A stretch of DNA of 63,173 nucleotides, filler included, from Deltaproteobacteria bacterium (GTDB lineage: Bacteria > JACQOV01): assembly GCA_016202395.1 (NCBI GenBank). It is 4 parts of 4 records of this genome, joined end to end, with 100 filler letters (N's around TTAATTAATTAA, not from the genome) between each part and the next. Parts side by side here need not be neighbours in the genome. Positions count along the whole stretch, not along the records: positions 24,437 to 54,776 come from JACQOV010000076.1; 3 more parts are not named here. The stretch is one strand, 5' to 3'. Position numbers and translations under genes: made by a program. Position 1 is the stretch's first letter, and the number at the start of each line of letters is the position of its first letter. Under the pieces are notes generated by a model. That model was given only the letters and a program-made list of their open reading frames with translations, did not search any database and had not been told where the DNA came from. Shown one piece after another: positions 24,337-59,794 of the stretch.

Positions 24337-24436
24337 NNNNNNNNNNNNNNNNNNNNNNNNNNNNNNNNNNNNNNNNNNNNTTAATTAATTAANNNNNNNN
24401 NNNNNNNNNNNNNNNNNNNNNNNNNNNNNNNNNNNN
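24337..24436. other. Artificial contig linker
   Basis: 44 N + TTAATTAATTAA + 44 N. Confidence 0.98.
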
Positions 24437-24744
24437 AGCATTTTGTCCTTTTGGAAGTGCTGCGAGAATCGAACTACAAAAAGCTCGACCTCCTATTCTC
24501 CTTCTACAGAACAGAGAAAGGGGCTGAGGTAGACTTGATTATCGAAACACCTAGAGGACAAACTTATGCTATAGAAATCAAGGGGACCGACGTCGTCGAT
24601 TCCACACATTTGAGAGGGCTTCGATCCTTTGCGGAGATCTGTCCAACGGCAAAATTGGGGTGCGCTTGTTTGGCGCCACGAAAAAGGAATATAGGAAACA
24701 TCAACATCTTCCCCTGGCAAGATTGGATGGAGCTGCTTAATTGA
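24437..24744 (+). CDS. C-terminal fragment of AAA ATPase/DUF4143 protein (5' cut by contig end)
   Basis: FYRTEKGAEVDLII..AIEIK PD-(D/E)XK-like motif. Confidence 0.75.
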
Positions 24745-27700
24745 CGGTGACGTTGCCGGAGGTAGTGGATCGGACGGTGTTGCCGATGCTATCTTTGATC
24801 GTCACCGTGAAGGTGACCGTGGTTCCGACGGGGGGTTGAGCAATGAGAAGAATGGTGTGAGTTAAGCTGGAAACGCCCCAGATCACGTTTGATAAAGCGG
24901 CGGAACTCACACTGAGATTATTCGCGTTTGTCCATTTCAGTTCACGGGAACCTCCATCGGGCAGCGCAAAATTCCCAGACGTAGCGGTGATCGTGTAGGC
25001 TTGCCCTTTGGTAATGCTGGAGGGAGCGCTGATGGTGAACGGGGCGGTGATGGTTACCGAGGAACTGGATTTCGTCACGTCCCCCACGGTGACATTGAAA
25101 ACGCAACTCCCCGTGGGGAAGGTGGCGGGGAGGGTAAACGCGAGGGTATCGGCCCCCCAAGTGATAGTGGTCACAAGGATTGAAATGGTTTGACCATTGG
25201 AATGGGTGCAGGTTACGGTGCTTGTCCCTGGAACAGCTCTAAAGGCTCCTGCGGGAGAGGCCGTGAGGGTTCCCGGCGTAACTCCTCTCACCATCGTTGA
25301 GGGGGAAGCAGTAACAGCGGAAAGGGCCGGCACGGTAGGCGTCAGTGTAGGGGTTGTTGACGCAGTAGCTGTCGGGTAACAAGAGCTATTCCCGCTCGGC
25401 TCAGGACCAACCTTGACCGGATTCGAAACAACGGTCGAGCCATCCGAAAAAGTCACCGTCACCGCCGTTTGGGACTGCGAACCCAAATTCTTAGGAATAC
25501 AAACGCTCAATTCACTGGCCCCCGTAAAAGTTGCGCTTTCTTTTTTCCCGTTTGTACTGCCCACCTCCACTTTGACTGGCGTGCCAGAACCGAAGATCTT
25601 ACACGTGGTGTTTTTCCCAACGATCGCGGCGATGTCACAATTCAAAAACGATGACTTCCCCGCCCCGGCAAAGGTGTCGGATAAGCGAATGCCACTATCG
25701 GGGTCTACGATCACAGCCTTAAAGGCCGTCCCCGTCCCTGCAACGAGGGCCGTCGCCGACCCTGTGCAAGCGGATTCCAACTGTCCCGAAGCCACACAAG
25801 CGCAGGTGTAAGGGGCGCTGGAATCAGGGACCAAATTCACGGTAGCCCCTTCCCCAAGACTCCCCCCACTCCCAACCTTGGAGGGGGCCATGAACGTGGT
25901 GACCAAACGAGGCCCTGTGCAACTGATGTTATAGTTCTTGGTGGCGCAAGAGGAGGATTGAGCCAAACAGTGAACCGTGGCGGGAACTGTCGCATCCGTA
26001 CTCATGCCTCCCAGATTCGTCATGGCGGTAAAATCGGCATCGGTAGCCGTGTCTCTCTTCGGATCGCAGTCCCCTTTGGAGTAAGGATTCAACCCCTTGG
26101 CTGATTCCATCACATCAGGACATCCATCCCCATCGGTATCTTTGATGGTTCCTTCTCCGGACGATTTCATCACAGATCGAGCGGTATCTAAATTCACACT
26201 CGGCATCGAAGTGCTCATCTCGCTGATCTTGGTCCGTTTCAAGGTATTGAGATCCGCATCTGCTGCTCCAACGAATTCACTCATCGTTTTTCCAGAGAAA
26301 CTTGCGAGGGCCACAAGAAGATCCCCGTTGAGGGTCATTCCTGCTTTTTCCGCAACGGCCGCATCGGTATAATCACAGTATCCTGTAGAGGTAACGTCGC
26401 ACTCCAAGGCATCGATCTGCGACTTCCACTCGAACCTCTGTCTGGCAACAGCGCATCCCGCCTCCCCTAAAGAAACCCCTACTTCCTGTTCAATCTCTTC
26501 ACAAGTAGCATCTGTAGAGAGATCCACTCCATCAAAAATAGTAATCGGCATCCCCAAACCACTGAGCAAGGCATTATTCGCAAGCTCATTGATTTGCCCA
26601 CTGAAAATCCCCCCTTCGAAAAGGGCGCGCATGGTGTCTGCGTTGACAACAGAGTTCGCCGTCTCCCGAATTTTATCGATAAGACTGGTCCATCCGCTCC
26701 CGTCGACTCCTAATCTATCTGTGGCATTAAACTTCTGGATCCTGATATCCAAAAGATTAGAGCCTAATATCTCTTTTTGCCCAAGCAAATCCAACGTTTT
26801 GGGATATTTCCCTTCCGCCTTGAATTCATTAAATCGAGTCTTCCAATCTTCACTCCCCTGTTTCCACGCCGTAGAAAAGAGATCGGATCCGTACTCATCG
26901 ATCACTTGAGTGATCTGGTCCTGTAATGCCTCTAAGCAAGCCGCGCGTCCCGCCAGTCCGCCATCGTAAACACAAGTTAAAAATTGATTGTAAGCCACAT
27001 CCAACAATCGCAGCAAGTTTCCACCCACATCAGCCCCTAAAGCAGAAAAGATCTTTTGCACCAGTTGACTTTGTTGCACCAAAGCCTCGGTGGCACCTTG
27101 AATTTCCACTGCATCTCGATCAGGATCGGGAGGGATTCCCTCCACACCCACATCGAGCGCCAACTGGGTATTCACCTTTAACGTGCTAAGTTGAGAGAAA
27201 TAGAGATTGGCGATGAGGGCAAGGTTTACAAATGCAAAAGATTGATCAAACCCCTCGCCGAGAAGAAGTCTGCGAGCAGTGCGTCGTAACCAATCGGTCT
27301 CGGAATCAAAAACCACTTTCAGGTTCGAGGGATCATCCCCGGTGTGAAAACGGAGAAGAGAACCAAAAGGGACGGCATCCGTTGTCTCCGCCCCCCAAGC
27401 AGTCGGTTCGAATGTCACTTCAAGATCATCTTTATCGATAAACTCCATAGAAGGGATATCTAACGTACATCGAAGCATCCCGCTCTCTTCATCACAGAAG
27501 ACCTTTGCGAGTTCGATATCGGTGGCAATTCCGCCTCGAATAAGACGAATGCTAACATCCTCTGTGACCACACTGAGAGGAGCTTTTTTCATCTTCAATG
27601 CGTGTTCTTGCTGCAAACGGGGATCGAAAATAGAGGTTAGAGCCGCTTGGCGCAGTGAAGCCGCAGCCAACTCGAGGGTGGCCTCCTCAATCTCGGTGGT

Positions 27701-27889
27701 GACACCGGCCACCTGAAGCGTGAGCCCTGCTTGGGTCTCCTGAGCCCCACCTACCGTTCCTGCGTTGAATGTCCCACTCCCGTCGCTACAGGAGATCAAA
27801 AACGCTAAGAGTGCAGGAGTGAAAATCGTCGAGACGACCCCGCCCCAATGCAACAAAAAAATCTGATTGATGACACGTTGCGTTAACAC
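24737..27889 (-). CDS. Large surface lipoprotein A (helical core, Ca-binding DxDGDG motif, Cys-rich and Ig-like C-terminal modules)
   Basis: GTG start after GGAGG; lipobox LISC; DTDGDGCPD; Thr/Ser-rich beta modules. Confidence 0.75.
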   Translation of the reverse strand: MLTQRVINQIFLLHWGGVVSTIFTPALLAFLISCSDGSGTFNAGTVGGAQETQAGLTLQVAGVTTEIEEATLELAAASLRQAALTSIFDPRLQQEHALKMKKAPLSVVTEDVSIRLIRGGIATDIELAKVFCDEESGMLRCTLDIPSMEFIDKDDLEVTFEPTAWGAETTDAVPFGSLLRFHTGDDPSNLKVVFDSETDWLRRTARRLLLGEGFDQSFAFVNLALIANLYFSQLSTLKVNTQLALDVGVEGIPPDPDRDAVEIQGATEALVQQSQLVQKIFSALGADVGGNLLRLLDVAYNQFLTCVYDGGLAGRAACLEALQDQITQVIDEYGSDLFSTAWKQGSEDWKTRFNEFKAEGKYPKTLDLLGQKEILGSNLLDIRIQKFNATDRLGVDGSGWTSLIDKIRETANSVVNADTMRALFEGGIFSGQINELANNALLSGLGMPITIFDGVDLSTDATCEEIEQEVGVSLGEAGCAVARQRFEWKSQIDALECDVTSTGYCDYTDAAVAEKAGMTLNGDLLVALASFSGKTMSEFVGAADADLNTLKRTKISEMSTSMPSVNLDTARSVMKSSGEGTIKDTDGDGCPDVMESAKGLNPYSKGDCDPKRDTATDADFTAMTNLGGMSTDATVPATVHCLAQSSSCATKNYNISCTGPRLVTTFMAPSKVGSGGSLGEGATVNLVPDSSAPYTCACVASGQLESACTGSATALVAGTGTAFKAVIVDPDSGIRLSDTFAGAGKSSFLNCDIAAIVGKNTTCKIFGSGTPVKVEVGSTNGKKESATFTGASELSVCIPKNLGSQSQTAVTVTFSDGSTVVSNPVKVGPEPSGNSSCYPTATASTTPTLTPTVPALSAVTASPSTMVRGVTPGTLTASPAGAFRAVPGTSTVTCTHSNGQTISILVTTITWGADTLAFTLPATFPTGSCVFNVTVGDVTKSSSSVTITAPFTISAPSSITKGQAYTITATSGNFALPDGGSRELKWTNANNLSVSSAALSNVIWGVSSLTHTILLIAQPPVGTTVTFTVTIKDSIGNTVRSTTSGNVTVN

Positions 27890-27910
27890 ACATCCCTCCA
27901 CTAGAAACCA

Positions 27911-27926
27911 TGCAAAAAGGATGCCA
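27911..27926 (-). promoter_or_regulatory. Sigma-54 -24/-12 promoter of lipoprotein A
   Basis: TGGCATCCTTTTTGCA (GG-N10-GC) on the minus strand. Confidence 0.85.
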
Positions 27927-28035
27927 AAAGGGCCTCCCACAGTCTATTTCTAAGTTCATGATTTTTAAAATATTTTTAAACACCCATCCGACGCGAGGGC
28001 CACGGAAGGCCATTTATCACCGCAATTATTTCCTA

Positions 28036-28056
28036 GGTGTGCAAAATTGCCACACC
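28036..28056. promoter_or_regulatory. Candidate enhancer dyad GTGTG-N9-CACAC
   Basis: GGTGTGCAAAATTGCCACACC, centred about 120 bp upstream of the -24 box; same motif and spacing at 32602-32624. Confidence 0.6.
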
Positions 28057-28069
28057 GCCAACCACGTCA

Positions 28070-28137
28070 TGGGGTCAGGCTTCGGTATTTCGGTATTTCT
28101 TATTACCGCAATACCGAAATACCGAAGCCTGACCCCA
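28070..28137. repeat. REPIN-like perfect palindrome with GGGGTCAG ends
   Basis: 28-bp arms TGGGGTCAGGCTTCGGTATTTCGGTATT and AATACCGAAATACCGAAGCCTGACCCCA with a 12-nt spacer. Confidence 0.9.
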
Positions 28138-28142
28138 GACCC

Positions 28143-28175
28143 AAAAAGAAAAGGCCGGGGGTGGATCCCGGCCTT
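28143..28175 (-). terminator. Intrinsic terminator of lipoprotein B
   Basis: AAGGCCGGG-loop-CCCGGCCTT followed by a T-rich run on the minus strand, about 25 nt after the stop. Confidence 0.75.
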
Positions 28176-28198
28176 GTTTCGCGGAATGCAGTTATGGG

Positions 28199-31100
28199 TT
28201 ACGGATTGGAAGCTTGCAAGTTCATGCACTGACTCGCAGGCGTTGTTGCAATCGTCTCAAATATACCCGCAACGGCTCGAACCCTCATGCTAAACTTGCC
28301 CACGTGAGAAACACTCGACGGGATGACAACGGGAATCGCCGTGCTCATCAATTGATTTGCATCGTAGGCAACCGAGACGGGAGCTCCTGTGGATGCGGTG
28401 CAATCGTTATTCATTGGAACCACAGCCACATCGATGAGCGCCGCATTGGTGCCAAAGCTTCCGGTCTGGGCAATGACAACGAAGCTAGTCCCCTTTCCTC
28501 CCTGTCCCGAGGTGTCGTTTGGACCCGGAGGGTTCCCTTTAAAAACGGTGGCCCCATTGGCAATGGCCACACCCACAAGACTCACAGCCTGAACTAAGGT
28601 AGAGTTATAAGCGTATCCTCCCCCTGCAGCCGTGTAAGCCGCTCCCCCTTCCAATGTTGCGGCAGCCCCTCCCGTGGCATCCGCATTGTTATTGTCGAAG
28701 TGGTAAAGGGCTTTGGTGGCAGCATCTGCAACATAGGGGAACCGTTGAGGGGTGAAATTGCCTGAGTAGCGCGCCGATTCTGAGACGCGGAGTTCATCAA
28801 AAACAGCATCCCCTGGGTTCGCGTCTGTCACCGCCAGCTTCAAAGGAGCGGTGACCGCATCGAAAATTGCGGTATCGGGAATACTAGCACACGTTCCATT
28901 GGTACAGACCAAGATGGTGCCGGTCCCGGTGTTATGAACAAAGGCGATGTGATTCCATCGGACGTCATTGGTAAAGTTCCCCAACCATGCTGAAGCCGCA
29001 GTAGCGTTAAATTCTCCCACCGGGCCACTTCCGTTAGCCGATAACTCCACTGACGTTGAGCCATCACCCTGGACCTTGATCTGCCAAGCATTATCCACCC
29101 ACCATTGTCCGAAGATGCGTACAGGTCCGTCATTCCGAGTGATTTTGACCCACGCCTCCGCTGTAAAGTTTCCCGCAGAACTCCAATGATCGGGGATCGA
29201 GACGAGTTGCCCACTGGTGGCGTTGTTGACGGTCACCCCTCGAGAAACCACAGTGCCACGCGAGACCAAGGTTAACGTCTCAGCGCTTGTGACTGTTCCA
29301 CCCCCTGTTGTCACGCGCACATTATAAGCCTGATTTCCGATCTGTTCCCCCGCTGTAAACTGAATCTGACCGTCACTCCACGACGTAACATAAGAAAGAT
29401 CAATGAGAGCCGCTGGACCGGGACCCGGGCTCGGGATTAATTGAAGGGTACTTCCTTGTCCTGCAGAGGCTCCGAAATTAGCTCCAGCAACTGTGATAAC
29501 GGTCCCTGGACTAGTGGGGTTCCCTTTGTTGGCGGTTGTTGGAGACTTCGGCGCCACTCCATTATTCGCATTGATCGTAGGAGCCGGTGGCGGCACCGTA
29601 AAATTACCACCATTGAGGGTTACTCCTGCAACCGTTACGTTCACCCCATACACTGCGGCGGGAACATTAGGAACAGTAAATGTGATGGTGGTCCCGTTCA
29701 CCAAAGTGGAGACCACCTGTGCTGGATTTCCCGCAAATTGTACGAGAGGAGTTCCCGTAAAGTTGGTGCCAGTAACCGTTACTAAGGAACCTGGAGCCCC
29801 CGACAGAGGATTCACAGTCGTAATCGTGGGGGAGGCTGGCGGCGGCGCAGCGCCGATGGTTAAGTTAACCGTTTCAGAAGTAACGTTGTTGATGGTAACC
29901 TGGATCTTCCCAGTCGCTTCCGGCGGAGCTACAAACGTTCCGAAAGTCTGTGTGCTCTGTGTGAAGAGAAGATTCGTACTATTGAACTTATAACTCCCCT
30001 GACCAAAGGGGAATTGAGATGTGGTGCATAAGCCATAGGTGGCCCCAGAAGTAAGACTGACCATGGCCGCATTCGTACAAGTGGAGTCATTGGACGGAAC
30101 CACTTTAAGCGTTTGCAACACGGACGGCGGCGGCTGTTGCTGAACCGTAACCTGGAAACTCGCCGGCAAAGAGCTTTTCGCCGACACGATTACCGTGACA
30201 GGATAAGTGCCTGCAGACACATTGGGAACTGTGAAAGTCATGTGAGTACTATCCACGAAGACCGAGGTGGCCGTCGACTGCCCAAGCTGCACCACCGCCC
30301 CCGATGCAAAGCCGGTTCCGGTGATCGTCACCGAGGCTCCAACAACGCCAGAGCTGGCCGATAAACTTGTGATCGTCGGACCACTCACCAGCTGCTGTTG
30401 TTGCGGCGGGGCGCCGGCGATGAATCGATTGGAGGTGCACTCCTTGCTAATCGACGAAGATTGTATGCAAAAACGATAGGGCGCTCCAATGACTAGCGAG
30501 AGTGGGATCGTCCCTCGGAGCCCTCCTGCGGTACAACCCGAGATAGAAATGCCACTCATCGTCACTCGGACACTATCGGCCACATTATTCACGTTTTCGA
30601 ACCACATGGTAACGGGAGGCTGAAGCGCGGGCCCAACCACGCAAACATCGATGCTCTCTCCCACAACCTTGGTATCCCCATCCGTCAGTCCGACGAAGCT
30701 AAGAGAATGCGTTTCAGGAACCGCATTGACTACGGTGATCTGGGTATTGTTAACCGTGACGGATACCGTTGGGGTCTCATAGTACAGACTGCGATCAAAA
30801 CCGGCATAAATCCCGGTCTCGAAGTTTTCTTTCAATGCTTGTGCGGTTACAGCAAATTGTGTTGCCTCCGCTGTTTGTGCAAAGTTAACCATGGAGGTGA
30901 AGTTACTAAAATCATACTGGGCGAATGAATCTTCTACCCCCCAGGCCGTTACCGCCACTTGGAGGTAGGAACCCGTCGCTTCCGAAGCGTAGCTAAAACC
31001 CGCTAATTTTGAACCGATCTCGGCCATCAAGGCGGGATCCACCCACCCTCCACAACCCAGCGCTTTGCTACTACAGAAATTGGGATTGACCGCTATAATC

Positions 31101-32428
31101 TTTTCGTAGTCACAGTTCCGATGGTAATCGTCTCTTAACAACTGACAAGAGACATTGGATCCTACCCCCACTTCCGATCTCAAAGCCTCGCAAGACACCG
31201 TCTTTATATCATTACAAAGCGCGGTGGTGTTAATCATCCAAGTCACTCCGGTAATCTCCGCAATCTTATCTTTCATCGCGTTCTGCCATTGTGACCCGGA
31301 AACGTTGGTGAGAGAGTCGTAAGTGTTGAAATCCTCAGATCTCGTAAAGGAAAGTCCAGTGGTTAAAACGTCACTATACATGGAAAACATGGTGGAATCG
31401 TCCTGCCATCCACCCTCCACGAGTTGGGTATACTTATCCGTCATGCTTGCTTCGATTGAGGCTCCCAATCTAAGTATATCTCCGAAGCCTCCTCCCCCTC
31501 CAATTCCCGCCGTAAATGCCGCATTGCCCGCCTGCCTCAGGTTTCTAAAAGATTCGGGGGTCATGCCGCCAGTATTAATAGCTTGGTCAAAAGCAAATTT
31601 ATCTATATTTTTTTTGGCTTGATCACCATTAGTCCGAACGGCATCGAGGTAAACCCTCTGACCCAGGTTGGAGGCGTCAACGAACTTTGAGTCATAACTA
31701 CGCCACTGTTCAGCAATGCTCAGAAATGGTTTAAGAACATCACTACTGACGAGGTCACCCCTTGCAACAATATCAGTCACGCTAAGGCCGGTTGTCGCTA
31801 ATAGCTTGGCTATTTCAAGTCGCGGCTGAGCGCTCCGCGGTAGGTTCGCTTGCTGTTTAATAGCATTCGTGATGGAACGCTCGGCAGAGGTATCAGGGGT
31901 AATAGGAAGAACCGTTTTCTTCGTAGGATCCTTAATGACACCAACATCCAGAAGACCTACCACTCCTGAAGTGATTCCAGTCTCAGGATCCACGATCCCC
32001 ACATCAATGGTAGGATCACCTTCAAATTCTCCGTCAAAACAATCAAACTCCACCTGAATGGCCGCCGAGTCCTCTGGATCCACCTCCACAGAAAGAACGG
32101 TGCAATCCCTCTCGACCACCTCGCCTGTAGTTGAATCCGATATCTCCACCGTCGCCGTCACCAGATCATCTGTAACCTCTCCTGCTTTCAGAGCCGATGT
32201 ACGAGACAAAGAAAGGGCTGCCGTTTTAAGGGAGGTGCTTCGTGGAGCGCTGGAAGAAGTCGTCGAAATCGGGAGCGATAAGGTGATATCGGCGGTTACC
32301 GTTGCAGGGGTCTCTGGAACGCTCCCAGCAAACTTCCCATCTCCATGACTACAACCCCCTATCCAAAGGCCCAAAGTTCCCATCGATAAAAGGCTCAAAA
32401 TGACCTTCCCTGGTGATAAAATTTTCAT
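28199..32428 (-). CDS. Large surface lipoprotein B with IPT/TIG repeats and LamG/ConA-like domain
   Basis: RBS GGAGGGA, lipobox IGGC; PTITSLS..VTITGTGF IPT repeats; FTAEAWVK..WNHIAFV..FDELRVS..ALYHFD LamG signature. Confidence 0.8.
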   Translation of the reverse strand: MKILSPGKVILSLLSMGTLGLWIGGCSHGDGKFAGSVPETPATVTADITLSLPISTTSSSAPRSTSLKTAALSLSRTSALKAGEVTDDLVTATVEISDSTTGEVVERDCTVLSVEVDPEDSAAIQVEFDCFDGEFEGDPTIDVGIVDPETGITSGVVGLLDVGVIKDPTKKTVLPITPDTSAERSITNAIKQQANLPRSAQPRLEIAKLLATTGLSVTDIVARGDLVSSDVLKPFLSIAEQWRSYDSKFVDASNLGQRVYLDAVRTNGDQAKKNIDKFAFDQAINTGGMTPESFRNLRQAGNAAFTAGIGGGGGFGDILRLGASIEASMTDKYTQLVEGGWQDDSTMFSMYSDVLTTGLSFTRSEDFNTYDSLTNVSGSQWQNAMKDKIAEITGVTWMINTTALCNDIKTVSCEALRSEVGVGSNVSCQLLRDDYHRNCDYEKIIAVNPNFCSSKALGCGGWVDPALMAEIGSKLAGFSYASEATGSYLQVAVTAWGVEDSFAQYDFSNFTSMVNFAQTAEATQFAVTAQALKENFETGIYAGFDRSLYYETPTVSVTVNNTQITVVNAVPETHSLSFVGLTDGDTKVVGESIDVCVVGPALQPPVTMWFENVNNVADSVRVTMSGISISGCTAGGLRGTIPLSLVIGAPYRFCIQSSSISKECTSNRFIAGAPPQQQQLVSGPTITSLSASSGVVGASVTITGTGFASGAVVQLGQSTATSVFVDSTHMTFTVPNVSAGTYPVTVIVSAKSSLPASFQVTVQQQPPPSVLQTLKVVPSNDSTCTNAAMVSLTSGATYGLCTTSQFPFGQGSYKFNSTNLLFTQSTQTFGTFVAPPEATGKIQVTINNVTSETVNLTIGAAPPPASPTITTVNPLSGAPGSLVTVTGTNFTGTPLVQFAGNPAQVVSTLVNGTTITFTVPNVPAAVYGVNVTVAGVTLNGGNFTVPPPAPTINANNGVAPKSPTTANKGNPTSPGTVITVAGANFGASAGQGSTLQLIPSPGPGPAALIDLSYVTSWSDGQIQFTAGEQIGNQAYNVRVTTGGGTVTSAETLTLVSRGTVVSRGVTVNNATSGQLVSIPDHWSSAGNFTAEAWVKITRNDGPVRIFGQWWVDNAWQIKVQGDGSTSVELSANGSGPVGEFNATAASAWLGNFTNDVRWNHIAFVHNTGTGTILVCTNGTCASIPDTAIFDAVTAPLKLAVTDANPGDAVFDELRVSESARYSGNFTPQRFPYVADAATKALYHFDNNNADATGGAAATLEGGAAYTAAGGGYAYNSTLVQAVSLVGVAIANGATVFKGNPPGPNDTSGQGGKGTSFVVIAQTGSFGTNAALIDVAVVPMNNDCTASTGAPVSVAYDANQLMSTAIPVVIPSSVSHVGKFSMRVRAVAGIFETIATTPASQCMNLQASNP

Positions 32429-32478
32429 GACACTCCCTCCTATTGGGTCTACCACACGAAATCTCCACCTTGAAAATA

Positions 32479-32494
32479 TGCAAAACACATGCCA
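32479..32494 (-). promoter_or_regulatory. Sigma-54 -24/-12 promoter of lipoprotein B
   Basis: TGGCATGTGTTTTGCA. Confidence 0.85.
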
Positions 32495-32601
32495 AAGACC
32501 CATTAAAACAGAGGGTTATAACGCACTGTTTATGAAAGTGTTTTTGTGGGCCCCTGACAATAGCCGTGCAAAAGTGGCTTTTGGCATCGCAACTAGTATC
32601 C

Positions 32602-32624
32602 ATGTGTGTCTAAAAAGCACACAT
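32602..32624. promoter_or_regulatory. Candidate enhancer dyad GTGTG-N9-CACAC
   Basis: ATGTGTGTCTAAAAAGCACACAT, centred about 119 bp upstream of the -24 box. Confidence 0.6.
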
Positions 32625-32640
32625 CCTACCCCCCACTCAA

Positions 32641-33696
32641 GGGGTCAGTTTTAAGTTTTTAAGTAAAATTTTATGCACCTCAGGCAACAAACGGCCTTCT
32701 AGGATCGATAGTAAGGTATGGCAAGAAAACCTCGACTCCATTTCCCGAGCGCCCTTTACCATGTGATATCCCGTGGAAACCAGCGCCAGCCAATTTTCTT
32801 AGATACCGAAGACCACAAGCATTTCCTCGCTCGATTCCAGCATTATCATCAAAAATTCCCTTTTCATCTTTACGCCTACGTTCTGATGCCAAACCATTTT
32901 CACTGCCTGATCCAAGTGGAAAACGTTCCCCTTGGAAAAATCCTCCAACCCCTTCTACTTTCATACACCTACTACTTCAACCACAAATATGAGAAGGTCG
33001 GGCACCTCTTCCAAGGCCGGTTCAAGGCGATCCTCTGTGATCAAGAGGTCTACCTCTTGGAGTTGATTCGATACATCCATTTGAATCCCATCCGAGCGAA
33101 GATGGCGCAGCGAGTAGAGGATTATCCATGGAGTAGCCACCCGGTTTACTTGGGGTTAAGACATGAACCCTGGGTTGAAACTCCAAGGGTCCTGGCTCAA
33201 TTTTCCTCTCACCTACAAACCGCACGGAACAAACTTGCAGAATTTATCGCGGATGGGGCGGGCGGCGATCCCCCATGGAATCCCCCAATGATGAAGGGAC
33301 AACCCCTTCTGGGAGATGCGAATTTTAGCGAGAAGGTGTATCAAACCACTCAAGAACGGGATCCCTGTTATTGGGATCTCGATTTAGAGTGGATCGAAAA
33401 ACATGTTTGTCGAATGCTTCAGATCGACGCCGAGGCGCTCCAGACCCCATACCGAACCGCCAAAGAGGCGGGGGCACGGGCAATCATCGCTTACCTATGG
33501 AAAAGATTGGCCGGTGGAACATTAACAGAGTTAAGCCAACGCTATGATAGAAAACCTGCCACCTTTACCCAGGCGATCGAGCGGGTGGAACATTGGAAAA
33601 GAGAGGATCCACACTTCTGGCAGCGGGTTGCTGCACTAGAAAAGGAGATCACCATCCACAAGCGGAAAAGATACTTAAATACTTAAAACTGACCCC
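32641..33696 (+). mobile_element. RAYT/Y1 transposase element bounded by 25-bp inverted repeats
   Basis: GGGGTCAGTTTTAAGTTTTTAAGTA (32641-32665) and TACTTAAATACTTAAAACTGACCCC (33672-33696), one mismatch. Confidence 0.85.
32718..33686 (+). CDS. REP-associated tyrosine transposase (Y1 HUH) with C-terminal DnaA-like HTH
   Basis: YHVISRGN, YVLMPNHFH (HUH), GHLFQGRF, RYIHLNP, YPWSS; stop codon lies inside the right IR. Confidence 0.92.
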   Translation: MARKPRLHFPSALYHVISRGNQRQPIFLDTEDHKHFLARFQHYHQKFPFHLYAYVLMPNHFHCLIQVENVPLGKILQPLLLSYTYYFNHKYEKVGHLFQGRFKAILCDQEVYLLELIRYIHLNPIRAKMAQRVEDYPWSSHPVYLGLRHEPWVETPRVLAQFSSHLQTARNKLAEFIADGAGGDPPWNPPMMKGQPLLGDANFSEKVYQTTQERDPCYWDLDLEWIEKHVCRMLQIDAEALQTPYRTAKEAGARAIIAYLWKRLAGGTLTELSQRYDRKPATFTQAIERVEHWKREDPHFWQRVAALEKEITIHKRKRYLNT

Positions 33697-33705
33697 ACTC
33701 TTTTT

Positions 33706-36700
33706 TTACTGCAAGTTCAAGCACTGACTCGTAACGGCGGTTCCATTGTTCACAGCCACAGCAAATTTGAACGGACCGGTATAGGTAACCCCAGAGCCCT
33801 CGATGATAATCGGAACAACGGTCGATGTAAACTGCTGCGTGTTGTAGGGTAACCCCCCCGCAGGCCCACCACTTCCAAGCTTATTGAAGGGACCTGTGCA
33901 ATCCGCTGCGGTGAACGAAAAGATCTTCACCTGGACAAGATTGAAGTCCGAACCAAAAGTTCCCACCGTCGCAGTGATATTGACAGCTGTTCCATTGTTG
34001 CCTGGCGGCGAAGCCGTGTTCTTCGTAATGGTAGCTCCGTTGCCGAATGCGTTTCCAGCGCCATTCCTCGCCTCAATGGTCAAACCAGATGGCGGTGGAG
34101 CCGCGTTAATCGTCAAGTTCGTTGGGGCTGTAGCTGCTACTCCTCCCACAACCACCTTCACTGGATAGATCCCCGCTACGAAAGCTGGTGGACCAGGGAT
34201 TTGAAAGCCGATGCTGGTAGCGCTCCATGTAGTTGGAGTGACACCTAGAGCCTCCGTTCCAACAACCAGCTGCAGCAAGCTAGAGCCCTGAGTGGCTCCG
34301 AAATTTGACCCCATGATCGTAACCGCGACCCCTGGCAGACCCGAGGTTGGCGTAAAGCCGGTGATTGTTGGAGCCGGTGGCGCCGGTGCTCCAACGTTAA
34401 CTGTGACTGTGCTATTCGCTGAACTTCCCCCAGTAACGTTCACCCGCACCGTGTAGGCTCCCTGCACTGTGTTATTATTCACCGTCACCGCGATCGATGT
34501 GGAACTCCATGAAGTGGTGACCTGATTGGTAGCGACTGCATCCTTCACCAACTGCACCGTGCCGCCACTGCCGAAATTCAGTCCCGTGATGGTAAAAGGC
34601 CCCCCTGGAGGCACATTAGTGGTGGGGATATTACTGATACTAGGCATAGGCAGAGCTGTAACCATCGTTGTGGTCATAGCTATCGTGGTGCTGGTGCAAG
34701 TCGATGCCTTGGCTGAAAACATTTTGGGAGGCAAATAGTATGCCGTTCCATTCACAAAAACGGCAATCGAACCCGAATTTGATGTTTCACACGGAATGGT
34801 ACAAGTGAATTCCCGAGGCTCCACAGACGATCCTGCGCCGCACGTCGCCTGAAGTTCGATTCCGCCGGAGCCCTGAAACGCAAGCTTAGAAACGGTATCG
34901 CTGGAGGTAATCCCCCATATTTTAAGCTTAGCCGAGCCCCCTGGCTGCAAGGACGCCGCCGCCGCGCTATCCTCGACATCCGCAAAGATTTGGGTCGCAG
35001 TAGAACCCGCTCCCGCATAGCTATTACTGAATGTGGTGAAGCGGGTATCTGCAATCACTGCCGTCCCTGTTGCGGCAACAGTAAGCCCGGTCATGATCAC
35101 GGTCACCGTTGTCGCGGCTGTGATCTTGGCAATGGTGCTTCCCCCTGGAGCTGTTAAATAATCGGCATAACTGGACCCGGCCCCGGTGGCTGCAAATTGA
35201 TAAGAGCCGGAAGAATCCGGGGGTAGACTGACCGGTGTACAAGTACCACTATTGATGGCAGTCGTCCCCATTAAGCCCTTGTCAAACCAAACGTTTCGAA
35301 AAACCTTCCCACTGATCATTAGGTTGGCTCCATCCAATTTGCTACTGTCGCAGTTGCCTGTCCCCGCGCAGATGATGCAGACCTTCACATTCACATCCGA
35401 AGAAGAATCCGTTACGCCCACACCAGCGCCATAGGTAAAACCGTAAAAGTTTGCAATATCCATCGCCCCACTAGTTATTTGATTCTGAGCGGTTGTCATC
35501 GCTGATTTATAATCCGTGGTGGCAGACAACGGATTAAATCCCGCAAACAACTCATAAGCACTGGGGAGTCCGTCTCCGTCTTCGTCGAATGACGATTTGG
35601 TAAACGCAGGCATATAAGTCGCTATTTGAGTTTTAACGGTAGTGGAATAAGCGTTTACTGAACTATCGCTCATTGACTTGCGAAGATCTTCCATTGAATT
35701 GGCCCCTGTCCATTCTTTAACGCTTTTTCCAGCCACTAGAGCACCCCCCATCATAATCTCTCCCGTCCATGTATGACCCACGGCCTGTCCTGCCGCAGAA
35801 AAATCGGTGAAGGTACGCGTTGTGGGATCGACTTTCACACCTTTTGCTTCAAAATTTGTGACTTCCCCCTGCCATCTCATCTCTTCACGGCAAGCATTAG
35901 ACCACATTGCTTGTTGATTGGCATCGGTGATCGATGCTCCCACTTTCTCAATTAATTGGGCAGCGGTGTAGGAGAGGGCCGCCTCTCCATCACTTTTAGA
36001 GAGATTCTTACATACACCTGGGGGAACACCTACCACCGTTTGACTTATTGTTGACATTACATCCGAAAAAGCTACTTTAAAAGCACCTGTAGACATTCCA
36101 AAGGAATCGATAAGAGTCGTCGGATCTAAAATAGTGTTGAACATAGTCTTAGTTGTAGCGTACATCGCATCCAACTTGGCGAATGAATCCGCCAGAGCCT
36201 GGAGCTGATCTCCTACTCCTTGCAAGGCCGAATAATATTGGATCCCAATATCCCTATTAGTTCTGGCAATCGCGCTGGCCCTCTCAAAAGCGCTTACATC
36301 CCCAGAAAACCCCCCCTTAGTTACTAAAAGTTGAGCGTCAAAACTCTTATCGCCAATGGCCGCGGCCTCTTTATACTGATCCGCTGTAAATACCCCAAGG
36401 TCCGAAAATGTGGCAGCCATCCCTTTAGCGATGCCCTTGGCCGCCTCGCTCCGGAGGGTGCCTTGACCGACGACTGCTTTAAAAAAGGACTTCATCGCGG
36501 CATCGGAGGCCTTCCTTATAGCACTGGGGTCAGCTGTCACCTGCTGAGCGAAGGCCTGAAATTTGGCAGCGAGCGGTTCTCTCATGGCCTCCACCGCATC
36601 GGAGTCCAGGCTCTGCAGATTCCCGTCAATAACCATCTGGAAAATATCTCCTCTGGAGATCTGACTCGGAGGAACCCCGTTTTTCAGCACGGCTATCTCG

Positions 36701-37320
36701 AGTTTAGCTGCAGCCGTGGTGTAGAAATCACAGGGAACAACACCATCGAGTGCACCCGTATCGTCATTCTTCAGATCCGTGGCGGGATTAACCGTGACCT
36801 CCAAATCTTCCCCATTCTCCGTTCCTATGACATCCCCATTAAATTCAACATGGAGAGTCACATTCTCACTGGTCAAATCCACACCCTCCGGATTAACAAC
36901 TCCGACTTTGACATGCCCGGTGTCAGGGTCCGTAGTCACATTGAGAACCTCGACCGCGATCGGTTCGGTGGCGGTGGAATCGTCTTCAGTAGTATTGGGA
37001 TCGTCAATAAAAGCCTCACAGGTCACATCTGCCGCCTCGAGGTGAGCTACCTTCGAGAGTGAGGCCCGCTTCTGTGTCAAGGCCGATTCACGAACATGAG
37101 GGTTGAGGGTTGCGGCAATCTGTAGAGCCTCCGACTCCTCAATCGAGGTTGTCGTTAAAGCCGTGTCGAGGGTGAGGTCCGCTGTAGGGGTGGTGTCGGT
37201 GGTGGAACTGGTAGCCGTTTCTGCATCATCATCGCTGCAGCTGCAGTCGGTAAAGGAAACGGCTAAAGCCCCTGCCATCAGGAGCCCTAAAATGGGTCTT
37301 AAATACGTTGGGGTTTTCAT
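33706..37320 (-). CDS. Large surface lipoprotein C with IPT/TIG repeats
   Basis: RBS AGGAGG, signal peptide followed by CSCS; DEDGDGLP; IPT repeats; C-terminal domain homologous to that of lipoprotein B. Confidence 0.8.
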   Translation of the reverse strand: MKTPTYLRPILGLLMAGALAVSFTDCSCSDDDAETATSSTTDTTPTADLTLDTALTTTSIEESEALQIAATLNPHVRESALTQKRASLSKVAHLEAADVTCEAFIDDPNTTEDDSTATEPIAVEVLNVTTDPDTGHVKVGVVNPEGVDLTSENVTLHVEFNGDVIGTENGEDLEVTVNPATDLKNDDTGALDGVVPCDFYTTAAAKLEIAVLKNGVPPSQISRGDIFQMVIDGNLQSLDSDAVEAMREPLAAKFQAFAQQVTADPSAIRKASDAAMKSFFKAVVGQGTLRSEAAKGIAKGMAATFSDLGVFTADQYKEAAAIGDKSFDAQLLVTKGGFSGDVSAFERASAIARTNRDIGIQYYSALQGVGDQLQALADSFAKLDAMYATTKTMFNTILDPTTLIDSFGMSTGAFKVAFSDVMSTISQTVVGVPPGVCKNLSKSDGEAALSYTAAQLIEKVGASITDANQQAMWSNACREEMRWQGEVTNFEAKGVKVDPTTRTFTDFSAAGQAVGHTWTGEIMMGGALVAGKSVKEWTGANSMEDLRKSMSDSSVNAYSTTVKTQIATYMPAFTKSSFDEDGDGLPSAYELFAGFNPLSATTDYKSAMTTAQNQITSGAMDIANFYGFTYGAGVGVTDSSSDVNVKVCIICAGTGNCDSSKLDGANLMISGKVFRNVWFDKGLMGTTAINSGTCTPVSLPPDSSGSYQFAATGAGSSYADYLTAPGGSTIAKITAATTVTVIMTGLTVAATGTAVIADTRFTTFSNSYAGAGSTATQIFADVEDSAAAASLQPGGSAKLKIWGITSSDTVSKLAFQGSGGIELQATCGAGSSVEPREFTCTIPCETSNSGSIAVFVNGTAYYLPPKMFSAKASTCTSTTIAMTTTMVTALPMPSISNIPTTNVPPGGPFTITGLNFGSGGTVQLVKDAVATNQVTTSWSSTSIAVTVNNNTVQGAYTVRVNVTGGSSANSTVTVNVGAPAPPAPTITGFTPTSGLPGVAVTIMGSNFGATQGSSLLQLVVGTEALGVTPTTWSATSIGFQIPGPPAFVAGIYPVKVVVGGVAATAPTNLTINAAPPPSGLTIEARNGAGNAFGNGATITKNTASPPGNNGTAVNITATVGTFGSDFNLVQVKIFSFTAADCTGPFNKLGSGGPAGGLPYNTQQFTSTVVPIIIEGSGVTYTGPFKFAVAVNNGTAVTSQCLNLQ

Positions 37321-37370
37321 GTTTTTGGCCTCCTATAAAATAGACTTCAAAACTCCTGACTTGAAGAGTA

Positions 37371-37386
37371 TGCAAAAGGCATGCCA
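37371..37386 (-). promoter_or_regulatory. Sigma-54 -24/-12 promoter of lipoprotein C
   Basis: TGGCATGCCTTTTGCA. Confidence 0.85.
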
Positions 37387-37526
37387 AAAAATGTTCAAGA
37401 ATGTACAATTTTACCCTGTTGATTTAATTATAAAATTTAGAGCATGCTCAAATAAACCTCCTCGCTATGAAATTTTGAGTACGCAAATGTTACAAGAATG
37501 AGCGTTATAGCACACCCATTAGCCAT

Positions 37527-37545
37527 GGGGTCCGGCTTCGGTATT
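37527..37545 (+). repeat. Solo REP-like half-site at the island boundary
   Basis: GGGGTCCGGCTTCGGTATT, one mismatch to the 28071 arm; overlaps the stop of the FeS oxidoreductase. Confidence 0.8.
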
Positions 37546-39559
37546 AAAGAAGAGAGTTGGCGAGGAGTTCGGAGATGTCGAGGACGCGGACCTCTTCCTC
37601 TTTGGCTTTGGCCCGCACGCCGTCGTTGATCATGGTCATGCAGAAGGGGCAGGCGGTGGCGATGGTTTTGGCCCCTGTTTCTAAAAGCTCCTCGGTTCGT
37701 TCGATGTTAACGCGCTTGCCTTCTTTCTCCTCCATCCACATGCGGCCACCACCCGCGCCGCAACAGAACCCTTTGTCACGGCTGCGACGAGTTTCCACAA
37801 AAGCGCCGTTAGCGACACTTTTCACAACGTCGCGAGGGGCCTCGTAAACATCGTTGTGACGACCGAGATAGCAGGAATCGTGATAGGTGGTTGCCGAGAT
37901 CTCTTTTCCCGCGGTGACCGAAAGCCTCCCTTCTTTCACAAGTTGCGCGATAAACTGGCTATGGTGAACCACTTCATAGTTTCCGCCAAACTGCGGGTAT
38001 TCATTCTTGATCGTATTGAAACAATGCGGGCAAGCCGTCACTACTTTTTTGAATTTATATTTGTTGAGCGTGGCAACGTTCTCTTTCATTAAAGTTTGAG
38101 CGAGGTATTCATTGCCCAAACGTCGGGGAGAATCGCCAGAGCATTTTTCCTCGGTTCCAAGGATTCCAAAACGGACCCCCGCCTTTTTCATAATCTGAGT
38201 TAAAGCGACAGAGATTTTCTTGTTCCGTTGGTCGAAAGAACCGGAGCAACCAACCCAATAGAGGACATCGACCTCTCCGCACTCCACTTGAGACAGGATC
38301 GGGACATCGAGCCCCTTGGCCCAATCGGCTCGCGTGTCGGCCCCGATTCCCCACGGGTTCGAATTGTTCTCAATATTCCGCAGCGCCGTTTGAGCTTCCG
38401 GAGAGATTTTTCCTTCCATTAAAGTGAGGTAACGCCGCATGTCCACGATGTGATCGATGTGCTCAATCCCCACAGGGCATTCGGTGACACAGGCGCGGCA
38501 CGTGGTGCAAGCCCAGAGTTCCTGTTCGGTAATCCAACTGGCAGGGACTGTCTTGTTGACAAGCTCCTGTTCTTCCGAAGTGAGAGTCCCCCCTTTTTGT
38601 TGTTTGAGAAGTGTCGGCCCCTGCTCCAGCAAGGCATCCCGCATTTGGGTGATGATCGCCCGAGGCGAAAGGAGTTTTCCCGTGATGTTGGCAGGACAGG
38701 CTGCGGTGCAACGCCCACATTCGGTGCAAGAGTAGGTATCGAGGAGCTGTTTCCAACTAAAATCGGTGATTTTAGAAACACCAAAGGTGGTCACCGATTC
38801 GTCCTCAAGATTCATCGCTTTTAAAGCCCCTTTGGGACGCGAGGTTTGGAAGAAAACGTTGGGGGCGGCAGCCATAATGTGCAGGTGCTTAGAAAACGGA
38901 AGGTAATTGAGAAATCCCAAAACGGTGAGCATGTGAACCCACCACGAGGCTCGGCTCCAGACCGCAAGGGCGTTGGGCGAAAGGGCGCTAAAAAGGGCTG
39001 CGATGGCGCGGGAAACAGGCTTTGCCCCCGCATGAAGATCGGATCCACGAGCCATCTCGGCTCCATTCAAAGTGAAGAGAGAAACCATGAGGGTGAAAAT
39101 TAAAAGAAGGATCAATGTGGCATCCCATTGAGCCTCTTTGTGAACTTGTAATCTCTTGGGTCGGCTCACGTATCGACGATAGAAAGCATAGAGAACCGCC
39201 AACGCGACAAAGGCCGCAAAAAGGTCCTGAGTGAACAAAAGAACGGAATAGATCCGCCCCAGGAAGTGGAGCGAAAAAGGAGGGTAGATCCCTTGAATCA
39301 TCATCTCAAGAGTGCCAATCGTGATAACCAGGAACCCCCAAAAGATCGCGAAATGCATGAGCCCGGCAAGGGGCTCTCGAAACAGACGGCTTTGCCCCAA
39401 AACCATCGTTAGGACATCACGGACACGTTTTGCAAGATGATCGAAACGCTCCTCCGACTTCCCCAACCGCAGAAATGAAATCAGCTTCTTCGCGGAATAT
39501 CCAAACGCCGCAAACGAGACCAGTAAAATGAGTGTAAATACAATCGATTCAAAACTCAT
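37544..39559 (-). CDS. Membrane-bound Fe-S oxidoreductase (FadF / ETF:quinone oxidoreductase-like; TM + 2x4Fe-4S + 2 CCG)
   Basis: TM N-terminus; CTECGRCTAACP, CTTCRACVTECP; YHDSCYLGR, CCGAGGG, TACPFC. Confidence 0.9.
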   Translation of the reverse strand: MSFESIVFTLILLVSFAAFGYSAKKLISFLRLGKSEERFDHLAKRVRDVLTMVLGQSRLFREPLAGLMHFAIFWGFLVITIGTLEMMIQGIYPPFSLHFLGRIYSVLLFTQDLFAAFVALAVLYAFYRRYVSRPKRLQVHKEAQWDATLILLLIFTLMVSLFTLNGAEMARGSDLHAGAKPVSRAIAALFSALSPNALAVWSRASWWVHMLTVLGFLNYLPFSKHLHIMAAAPNVFFQTSRPKGALKAMNLEDESVTTFGVSKITDFSWKQLLDTYSCTECGRCTAACPANITGKLLSPRAIITQMRDALLEQGPTLLKQQKGGTLTSEEQELVNKTVPASWITEQELWACTTCRACVTECPVGIEHIDHIVDMRRYLTLMEGKISPEAQTALRNIENNSNPWGIGADTRADWAKGLDVPILSQVECGEVDVLYWVGCSGSFDQRNKKISVALTQIMKKAGVRFGILGTEEKCSGDSPRRLGNEYLAQTLMKENVATLNKYKFKKVVTACPHCFNTIKNEYPQFGGNYEVVHHSQFIAQLVKEGRLSVTAGKEISATTYHDSCYLGRHNDVYEAPRDVVKSVANGAFVETRRSRDKGFCCGAGGGRMWMEEKEGKRVNIERTEELLETGAKTIATACPFCMTMINDGVRAKAKEEEVRVLDISELLANSLL

Positions 39560-39771
39560 AGGGGCTTACTATACTAAATCTCCCTTTTAGGCTCAATGGG
39601 GAAAGAAACCACCTTTTGGATTAGCGGCTCCTTCTATAAGAGTATGCCTTTTGAATTCGAATCTTTCCTGAAAGCCTCACTAAAGAAGAGAGAGCCCTTG
39701 TGGAATTTTTACGAACGACTGTCCTGTTTTTACCTTTCCTATCTTTAATCATGGACTTTGAGCTCAGCCAT

Positions 39772-39895
39772 AGAATGTTGAGAAAGCGCCCAGATACGAG
39801 GCAGATCGCCGAGCCACGACGCAGGCGTACCTTGCTGGTACGCCGAGGAGTTGGCGAGGCGATCAACGAAGTAGATGGGCCTTTATCAACATTCT
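39772..39895. mobile_element. 124-bp MITE-like structured element at the etfA stop
   Basis: IRs AGAATGTTGAGAAAG / CTTTATCAACATTCT; central GGCGTACC-N5-GGTACGCC; homologous to the reverse complement of 54487-54619. Confidence 0.75.
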
Positions 39896-40890
39896 TAGTC
39901 GTGGGCTTTGATTTTTTTGATCTCCTCAATGAGCGCAGGCACCAATTTGAAGAGATCGCCCACGATCCCAAAATCGGCTTTTTGAAAAATGGGGGCCTCG
40001 GGATCTTTGTTGATCGCCACAATCACTTTAGAGGTTCTCATTCCGGCGAGATGTTGAATCGCGCCCGAGATCCCACAAGCGATATAAAGATTAGGGTTCA
40101 CAACTTTGCCCGTTTGCCCTACCTGCATGTCATGCGAAGCGTAACTCGAGTCCACCGCTGCGCGCGAAGCCCCCACCGTTGCCCCTTCCCCAAAAGCAGA
40201 AGCGAGATCCCAGAGAATCTTGTAGTTCTCTGAATTCTGCATGGCGCGCCCTCCGGAAACAATAATGCTCGCCTCCGTCAGATCGACCTTTTCCGATTTT
40301 CCTTTAACCACCTCTTTCAACTTCACACGGAACGCTTCGGGAGGAATGGAGACGCTGATCTTTTCACTCAGCGCCGTTTTTGAAGAATCGGCCGGCTTCG
40401 GCGTGAGGGTGTTCGGACGGATAGAGGCCATGGCAGGCCTGCCTGAGATAACCACTTCAATGAAAGCCTTGCCCGCATAAACGGGTCGCTTGAGTTTGAG
40501 ATCTTTATTCTCTGTCAGTCCAATCCCGGTGCAATCGCTGGCAAGCCCCGTCTGCAACCGAGCTGCAACACGGGGGAACAGATCTTTTCCGATCGAAGAG
40601 GCGGGTCCCAAAAAAATCGAGGGCTGTCTCTCCTTCATTAATGTTGTCAACACATGACAATAAGGCTCCGTGAGATATTGCCCCAAAGGCTGCGCATCGG
40701 CCACCAAAACCTTGTCGGCTCCGAGAGGTCCCAGTGGCGCCGCCATGGCCTCCACGCCGGATCCCAAAAGCACTGCAACGACTTCCTCGCTAAGCGTCTC
40801 CGCAAGCGTCCGAGCCCCCGTCAGCAACTGCGCCGCTGTTGATTTTAATTTTCCATCTTTGTGTTCTGCATAAACCCAGATACCTGCCAT
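39895..40890 (-). CDS. etfA: Electron transfer flavoprotein alpha subunit
   Basis: VSGGR, GASRAAVD, QVGQTGK, GISGAIQH, AINKD. Confidence 0.95.
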   Translation of the reverse strand: MAGIWVYAEHKDGKLKSTAAQLLTGARTLAETLSEEVVAVLLGSGVEAMAAPLGPLGADKVLVADAQPLGQYLTEPYCHVLTTLMKERQPSIFLGPASSIGKDLFPRVAARLQTGLASDCTGIGLTENKDLKLKRPVYAGKAFIEVVISGRPAMASIRPNTLTPKPADSSKTALSEKISVSIPPEAFRVKLKEVVKGKSEKVDLTEASIIVSGGRAMQNSENYKILWDLASAFGEGATVGASRAAVDSSYASHDMQVGQTGKVVNPNLYIACGISGAIQHLAGMRTSKVIVAINKDPEAPIFQKADFGIVGDLFKLVPALIEEIKKIKAHD

Positions 40891-40903
40891 AATTTCCTCC
40901 TCG

Positions 40904-40955
40904 GTAACCCCTCCTAACCTCCCCTTACATTAAGAGGAGGAACAGGAGGGGTTAC
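40904..40955. repeat. CCCCTCC..GGAGGGG palindromic repeat between etfB and etfA
   Basis: GTAACCCCTCCT..AGGAGGGGTTAC; same family as 6376-6458. Confidence 0.7.
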
Positions 40956-40959
40956 TCAT

Positions 40960-45250: not shown

Positions 45251-45266
45251 TGCAAAAGTCATGCCA
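45251..45266 (-). promoter_or_regulatory. Sigma-54 -24/-12 promoter
   Basis: TGGCATGACTTTTGCA. Confidence 0.85.
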
Positions 45267-48896: not shown

Positions 48897-48912
48897 TGCA
48901 AAAAATATGCCA
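48897..48912 (-). promoter_or_regulatory. Sigma-54 -24/-12 promoter
   Basis: TGGCATATTTTTTGCA. Confidence 0.85.
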
Positions 48913-54776: not shown

Positions 54777-54876
54777 NNNNNNNNNNNNNNNNNNNNNNNN
54801 NNNNNNNNNNNNNNNNNNNNTTAATTAATTAANNNNNNNNNNNNNNNNNNNNNNNNNNNNNNNNNNNNNNNNNNNN
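54777..54876. other. Artificial contig linker
   Basis: N run with TTAATTAATTAA. Confidence 0.98.
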
Positions 54877-55575: not shown

Positions 55576-55596
55576 GGGGTCCGACTTCGGTATTTC
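55576..55596 (+). repeat. Solo REP-like half-site
   Basis: GGGGTCCGACTTCGGTATTTC, 10 nt after the vapC stop. Confidence 0.75.
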
Positions 55597-59694: not shown

Positions 59695-59794
59695 NNNNNN
59701 NNNNNNNNNNNNNNNNNNNNNNNNNNNNNNNNNNNNNNTTAATTAATTAANNNNNNNNNNNNNNNNNNNNNNNNNNNNNNNNNNNNNNNNNNNN
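59695..59794. other. Artificial contig linker
   Basis: N run with TTAATTAATTAA. Confidence 0.98.

Follow-up and report, generated by a model that had tools for sequence, protein, structure and literature searches.

Three giant predicted lipoprotein genes lie in one orientation in assembly GCA_016202395.1 of a Deltaproteobacteria bacterium, and at each of their promoter-side junctions stands a copy of a short repeat that begins GGGGTC and belongs to the elements of TIRYT-type tyrosine transposases. The window analysed here is a stretch of 63,173 nucleotides, filler included, in which at least four contigs are joined, and the locus falls wholly on one of these (C57, JACQOV010000076.1; window positions 24437-54776). 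A sequence-only reading of the window had proposed that the repeat ends delimit units of promoter plus gene that are added, duplicated or exchanged; this was left unsupported by every test applied, and several of its premises failed. The cassette mechanism lacks support, and the layout is that of a standard sigma-54 promoter module with insertions at its edge. The elements add a further example to a kind already known, if little studied, and are probably ordinary TIRYT/REPIN-like insertions in a few permissive intergenic slots beside standard sigma-54 modules. The features that carry the argument are given below in window positions; repeat families A, B and C are defined in the second section.

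24737..27889, minus strand: gene 1, predicted lipoprotein of 1050 amino acids, lipobox LISC, without a Pfam or NCBIfam family
27911..27926, minus strand: predicted sigma-54 -24/-12 promoter of gene 1, TGGCATCCTTTTTGCA
28036..28056, minus strand: inverted repeat, likely enhancer site (for a bacterial enhancer-binding protein, bEBP) of gene 1, GGTGTGGCAATTTTGCACACC
28071..28136, no strand: family-B doublet, a 66-bp palindrome of two inverted copies of a terminal inverted repeat (TIR), heads outward
28151..28175, minus strand: intrinsic terminator-like hairpin and T-run, 3' of gene 2
28199..32428, minus strand: gene 2, predicted lipoprotein of 1409 amino acids, lipobox IGGC, two IPT/TIG domains and Laminin_G_3
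32479..32494, minus strand: predicted sigma-54 promoter of gene 2, TGGCATGTGTTTTGCA
32602..32624, minus strand: inverted repeat, likely enhancer site of gene 2, ATGTGTGCTTTTTAGACACACAT
32641..32665, plus strand: left TIR of the transposase unit, family C, GGGGTCAG followed by tandem TTTTAAGT units
32718..33686, plus strand: TIRYT-type tyrosine (HUH/Y1) transposase of 322 amino acids, Y1_Tnp plus a Bac_DnaA_C-like helix-turn-helix (HTH) domain, divergent from gene 2 and convergent with gene 3
33672..33696, minus strand: right TIR of the transposase unit, family C, 24/25 matches to the left TIR, 9 bp from the gene 3 stop
33706..37320, minus strand: gene 3, predicted lipoprotein of 1204 amino acids, atypical lipobox FTDC, two IPT/TIG domains
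37371..37386, minus strand: predicted sigma-54 promoter of gene 3, TGGCATGCCTTTTGCA
37527..37545, plus strand: solo family-B TIR, head GGGGTCCG and one tail unit, 18/19 matches to the doublet arm

Sigma-54 modules and the position of the repeats

Five matches to TGGCA-N6-TTGCA are present in the window, where 0.06 would be expected, and three of them lie 50-70 bp before the starts of the three lipoprotein genes (a lipoprotein being called here from a signal peptide and a lipobox cysteine, by pattern match only). The three co-oriented genes and their promoters were thus found where the sequence-only reading had placed them; the remaining two matches are at 45251-45266 and 48897-48912. Enhancer-dependent sigma-54 promoters consist of an upstream activating sequence, an IHF site and the -24/-12 boxes. 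The promoters predicted from sequence here resemble these in their boxes and spacing, in enhancer-like inverted repeats at about -100 to -140, in WATCAANNNNTTR-like sites between the two, and in the presence in the genome of one rpoN gene and 13 bEBP genes (13 strong bEBP domains). The GTGTG/CACAC half-site described earlier at 124-129 bp from the -24 box is indeed present at all three genes, with the second half of the inverted repeat degenerate at gene 3. This architecture is ordinary; the unusual feature is how often a promoter match stands before a very large gene: 13 of the 47 matches with an assigned gene are followed by one of at least 900 amino acids, a size reached by only 51 of 1742 open reading frames (ORFs).

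The constant position of the repeats was reproduced, with the GGGGTC(A/C)G heads lying 145, 147 and 141 bp from the -24 T of genes 1, 2 and 3 respectively. However, the same distance recurs at sigma-54 promoters where there is no repeat. Across the genome 55 promoter matches were found, compared with 5 in a reversed control, and 39 of the TGGCA-N6-TTGCA matches have both a downstream gene and an assignable upstream ORF boundary. In eight of these 39 the next upstream ORF boundary falls at 140-152 bp (140, 141, 142, 144, 145, 146, 147 and 152), with zero repeat heads within 220 bp, and a boundary closer than 140 bp was seen in only four. As ORF boundaries also fall at about 140 bp without a repeat, this distance is the length of the sigma-54 enhancer-promoter module here, and the spacing of 141-147 bp is shared by sigma-54 promoters of this genome in general, repeat or not. 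Repeat-free promoters carry diverse inverted repeats in the -140 to -90 zone, and WATCAANNNNTTR-like sequences are frequent in the -60 to -30 zone of promoters. A fourth case was found on contig C24, where a family-C doublet stands 140 bp upstream of a gene of 1195 amino acids.

At each of the three junctions nearly all of the leftover space is filled by the element. The gene 3 junction runs from the stop codon of the upstream Fe-S gene through the 19-bp solo copy into the enhancer zone; the gene 2 junction runs from the gene 3 stop through 9 bp, the 1056-bp transposase unit and 16 bp to the enhancer; and the gene 1 junction from the gene 2 stop through the terminator, the doublet and 14 bp to the enhancer. 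Because ORFs cover about 92% of the genome, the only free DNA lies between the end or terminator of the upstream gene and the distal edge of the enhancer, and insertions confined to this DNA would therefore all abut that edge at the same 141-147 bp. On this explanation the three giant surface lipoprotein genes, all different, would form a cluster specific to the lineage, each being transcribed from its own enhancer-dependent sigma-54 promoter (enhancer inverted repeat at about -95 to -140, IHF-like A/T-rich site, -24/-12 boxes), and three TIRYT-type copies would have inserted between the genes: a complete 'TIRtron' of family C, a transposase-less doublet of family B and a decayed solo copy of family B. 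The presence of the elements is shown; they probably arrived by transposase-mediated insertion and are probably neutral passengers here.

A TIRYT transposase and its dispersed repeat families

The view that the GGGGTC ends are those of an HUH/Y1 transposase of RAYT type (REP-associated tyrosine transposase, where REP is a repetitive extragenic palindrome) was borne out. The 322-residue protein matches Y1_Tnp (PF01797, E=5.6e-12) and the NCBIfam model for REP-associated tyrosine transposases (NF047646, 83.5 bits against a cut-off of 80), contains an HFH (HUH-type) motif and a RYIHLNP tyrosine motif, and at residues 225-290 matches Bac_DnaA_C (PF08299, E=6.4e-8, 33 bits against a cut-off of 31.5). 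Among solved structures it matched DnaA domain IV (2HCB/1L8Q, E=0.0013) and, weakly, E. coli TnpA_REP (4ER8, E=0.0023). The 25-bp repeats reported at its ends are present, although they are imperfect, and they begin GGGGTCAG, which matches the GGGGWSAS motif of PMC3733652. More than 5500 proteins of about 324 amino acids have this architecture, the closest outside this genome being 45% identical; of 300 other genomes, drawn from different families, 47 contained homologues, and a contig scan with the transposase as query gave only three partial Treponema matches. The genome holds two transposase genes, 51% identical, of which the one on C57 is flanked by family C and the other, on contig C28, by family A. 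No further Y1_Tnp gene, and hence none flanked by family B, was found in this assembly, which is 89% complete and broken at repeats.

Since both the domains and the GGGGWSAS-type TIRs match the descriptions of TIRYT genes and of TnpA_REP subclass 2.1, the element type is already known. Di Nocera et al. (2013; PMC3733652) describe TIRYT genes and TIRtrons with the motif GGGGWSAS and moderately abundant solo, dimeric and clustered copies, and several TIRYT genes with different repeats can share one genome. The present unit is like a TIRtron in its RAYT-like gene between GGGGWSAS TIRs and in its dispersed repeat families, and differs in its new host lineage, in some family-B heads (GGGGTCCG) that fall outside GGGGWSAS and, as far as the partial description allows comparison, in the two tandem 8-mers behind each head. 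Subclass 2.1 of Quentin et al. (2018; PMC6006769) has a C-terminal Bac_DnaA_C/HTH and flanking GGGG[AT][CG]A[CG] repeats, and the same Y1 HUH plus Bac_DnaA_C-like HTH architecture with flanking repeats is seen here. That paper did not find REP-like sequences near subclass 2.1 genes and doubted a role of the HTH in DNA recognition, whereas here each transposase gene has its own dispersed family, of which the tandem 8-mer pair is the family-specific part. To the RAYT/REPIN systems, as described by Bertels and Rainey (2011; PMC3116915) and Bertels et al. (2017; PMC5581495), the likeness lies in a single-copy transposase per family with its own flanking repeats and in non-autonomous inverted doublets dispersed in intergenic DNA; in contrast, single units here are not hairpins, have no GTAG head and are low in copy number, at 11-19 per family, and the HTH domain makes the transposase about twice as long. 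The locus is a clean natural case of TIRYT elements that have dispersed repeat families of their own.

The bare 8-mer GGGGTC[AC]G occurs 105 times in the genome and is not significant in the window, where it was counted 8 times against 5.5 expected and where 19 of 100 shuffles reached 8. The copies at 28071(+), 28136(-), 32641(+), 33696(-) and 37527(+) belong to the elements, and those at 36526 and 38172, without a family tail, are chance matches. When the head was extended by the first tail unit to an 18-mer, with at most 2 mismatches in 18, 42 sites in 35 loci were recovered, compared with 0 in the reversed-genome control. These form three families that have a common head and differ in two tandem 8-mers, namely A (CTAACTAT twice, 11 sites), B (TTCGGTAT twice, 12 sites) and C (TTTTAAGT twice, 19 sites). 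The repeats are neither abundant nor random in placement, with 33 of the 42 sites lying outside any ORF of at least 80 amino acids. AT nearly always precedes families B and C (ATGGGGTC), and TAG, often (G/A)TAG, precedes most family-A copies. A classical GTAG REP was considered and ruled out, the units being the head GGGGTCAG followed by tandem direct 8-mers and not hairpins.

At the locus itself the doublet and the solo copy share the family-B tail GCTTCGGTATTTCGGTAT, and the transposase ends carry the family-C tail TTTTAAGTTTTTAAGTAA. The three elements had been taken for an empty, a transposase-containing and a solo state of one element type; these are the usual forms of such elements, but two families are represented and not one type. 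The doublet, first described as a 68-bp palindrome, measures 66 bp with 27-bp perfect arms and a 12-nt loop, fits the REPIN-like form of two inverted copies of a dispersed repeat with a short spacer, and can form a DNA hairpin of -32 kcal/mol directly 3' of the gene 2 terminator. At eight other loci, family-C doublets of near-identical sequence lie between unique flanks, as would be expected of mobilised copies. The tail of the solo copy overlaps the stop codon of the upstream Fe-S gene.

The tandem 8-mers provide a lead on recognition. We examined 29 loci from other genomes and scored 20 with a credible TIR, the other nine being dropped for want of a convincing repeat. Most of the 20 foreign TIRs begin GGGG(T/A)C(A/G)(G/T) or a one-base variant of it, and two tandem 7-8-mers (at most 1 mismatch) stand behind the head in 12 of them, as they do in all three families of the present genome. 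Judged from these sequence patterns, recognition may have two parts, the head being read by the Y1 domain and the tandem units by the DnaA_C-like HTH; the 8-mers as candidate binding sites of the DnaA-like domain are a testable idea.

Beyond this locus, the repeats are strongly associated with arrays of Rhs toxin cassettes. The Rhs-core family, defined as a BLAST cluster of 60 in place of a regular expression that caught only 22 proteins, is the largest paralogue family of the genome; its members, mostly about 330-420 amino acids long, combine a signal peptide with an RHS-associated core domain (all 5 members tested pass TIGR03696) and a variable C-terminus. Arrays of them stand behind giant YD/Rhs genes at C28:42483-50984, C28:16831-27101, C95:20406-25867 and C30:1-8521. 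Within the arrays, family A and B repeats fill the spacers from stop codon to ribosome-binding site and run co-directionally with the genes, unlike the solo copy at the lipoprotein locus, whose orientation is opposite to that of the genes. Homology between neighbouring Rhs cassettes starts at the repeat head, which is equally explained by a repeat lying within a conserved 5' block that is copied with each cassette. A further family-B copy is at 55576 in the window, on contig C65.

Explanations for the shared layout

That a Y1 transposase adds, excises or exchanges promoter-plus-lipoprotein units at the GGGGTC ends, giving a variable surface array, appears very unlikely. A repeat end does stand at every promoter-side junction of the three genes, and a cleavage directed by the head GGGGTCAG, which the families share unchanged, could in principle reach all of them. 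Gene 1, however, lacks an end on its left side, where there are zero repeats. Gene 2 lies between B and C ends and gene 3 between C and B ends, with different tails, and gene 1 has one end, so that the genes are not enclosed in matching brackets as mobile cassettes would be. In the transposase unit and the doublet the heads point outward, so that the heads next to every lipoprotein gene are turned towards it and the gene itself is external to the elements. No lipoprotein gene at the locus stands, as the transposase gene does, within a heads-out pair of one family. The genes are orphan-like, as exchanged genes might be: gene 1 has a single homologue of 955 amino acids at 38% identity among 1.84 billion representatives, and for gene 3 no full-length homologue was found among 5.8 billion proteins, the sole match being a TIG-domain stretch in one protein. 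They are also absent from all 80 metagenome loci with a homologue of the neighbouring Fe-S gene, although these loci come from distant organisms and carry little weight. Against duplication, mutual identity of the three proteins is 21-39% over 130-620 residues and confined to TIG-domain stretches, so by sequence comparison they are not duplicates of one another, and G+C content stays at 0.46-0.565 throughout without a step at the junctions. Mapping the ends genome-wide, as the sequence-only reading had suggested, did reveal the non-random placement of the 42 extended sites described above. When the genome was compared with itself, repeat blocks of at least 200 bp and at least 80% identity had 396 distinct ends, of which eight fall within 30 bp of a repeat head; none of the eight is in this locus, and none of the 396 is at a lipoprotein junction. 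The enrichment of repeats at variable Rhs-core junctions speaks for the exchange of units, and the spacing, being generic to sigma-54 promoters, speaks against it. If it were true, the exchange of units would assign to RAYT/TIRYT transposases, enzymes without a settled benefit, a function at the level of the host.

Several observations weigh against mere passenger insertions. The repeats stand at three consecutive junctions although only 35 of 1634 gene junctions carry one; at 6 of the 35 repeat loci a sigma-54 match follows within about 260 bp downstream, where about 1 would be expected, three of the six being the present locus; and 15 of the 35 touch Rhs-core toxin cassette genes, compared with 5.6% of junctions (binomial p about 2e-10, not corrected for duplication), so that a link between the repeats and genes of variable secreted proteins exists at genome scale. 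The ORFs behind the spacing argument come from a simple longest-ORF caller, which weakens it somewhat, and the order of the lipoprotein genes is known from this genome alone, the sole member of its phylum in the genome set compared. A preference of the transposase for palindromic DNA (enhancer sites, terminators) or for a short motif would give both the constant position and the clustering, and is unlikely. IS200/IS605 Y1 transposases insert 3' of short target motifs on single-stranded DNA; the AT before families B and C and the TAG before most family-A copies would suit such a choice, as would the inverted repeats that adjoin the elements at genes 1 and 2 and the terminator. However, AT or TAG may belong to the element and not the target, and many of the Rhs-array copies spread by duplication of whole blocks and not by insertion. 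It seems quite unlikely that TIRYT repeats serve as junction modules for secreted-protein genes, in which the invariant GGGGTCAG head would be combined with family-specific tandem 8-mers read by the DnaA_C-like HTH and Y1 strand exchange at the common head could shuffle genes in the manner of an integron; were this so, a candidate-phylum bacterium would vary surface proteins and toxins integron-like. The cassette proposal resembles integrons in that short imperfectly palindromic sites separate co-oriented genes. The locus differs from them in that every gene comes with a promoter and an enhancer of its own, the flanking sites face outward and come from different families, the enzyme is an HUH/Y1 transposase, not an integrase-type tyrosine recombinase, and no change in cassette content was seen. 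Highly improbable, too, is a co-option of the repeats as architectural or insulating elements that isolate the sigma-54 enhancer from upstream transcription through a host protein or a cruciform. E. coli REP/BIME elements are reported to bind IHF and gyrase, in 4 of 4 cases the repeat is found at the edge of the module or 12-18 bp past the enhancer-like inverted repeat, and the hairpin of the family-B doublet follows directly on the gene 2 terminator; but 8 of 39 promoters show the same edge without a repeat, only 5-6 of 47 sigma-54 promoter matches have a repeat upstream, and the three copies are unlike in family, in the binding site they offer and in form, being a 66-bp doublet, a 1-kb transposase unit and a 19-bp solo copy. 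The evidence favours the ordinary case of passenger repeats that sit where a compact genome tolerates them. In a narrow literature search, no publication was found that ties TIRYT-type repeats to sigma-54 promoters or Rhs arrays.

Flanking genes and metagenome matches

The lipoprotein cluster is flanked by two further genes.

24439..24744, plus strand: C-terminal fragment of an AAA_14/DUF4143 ATPase at the start of contig C57, convergent with gene 1 (PF13635, E=1e-8)
37544..39559, minus strand: CCG-domain / 4Fe-4S oxidoreductase gene (the Fe-S gene), a conserved 'core' neighbour

The stop of gene 1 overlaps the convergent ATPase fragment. ATPases with AAA_14 and DUF4143 form a ten-member family in the genome, and a full copy at C89:13391-14554 lies between two degenerate, co-directional family-B repeats. 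On the other side, the 80 metagenome loci anchored on the Fe-S gene carry homologues of 40-65% identity, and the two genes upstream of it (39895-41868) are kept beside it in 7-10 of these 80 distant loci; with these neighbours conserved, the lipoprotein cluster starts right after a conserved operon. In the 80 loci there was no homologue of genes 1-3 and no homologue of the transposase, and no locus had the three repeat heads, an absence that says little because the organisms are so distant.

The assembly comprises 1.9 Mb in 108 contigs. Runs of N at window positions 24337-24436, 54777-54876 and 59695-59794 mark where contigs were joined, so neighbourhood across them is not real. The stretch was found in 4 groundwater metagenome runs, all from a single study and possibly the source samples, in contigs that have the same sequence as the window except for one A>G change and one 1-base insertion. 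One of these contigs spans the 5' end of gene 2, the left TIR and most of the transposase gene, and others end at the doublet and at the solo copy. Six joints listed from the metagenome contigs have sides of 19-32 letters, none at a repeat head, and with such short contigs they show neither variation nor its absence. No Rfam family reached its gathering threshold over 24437-41000. Two abundant repeats unrelated to the TIRYT families are also present in the genome, a 24-mer beginning GGGCACCTCTAAAAAC in about 40 copies and a sequence of about 38 nucleotides containing GGAGGTAGGTCTCTGAAC in about 30 copies.

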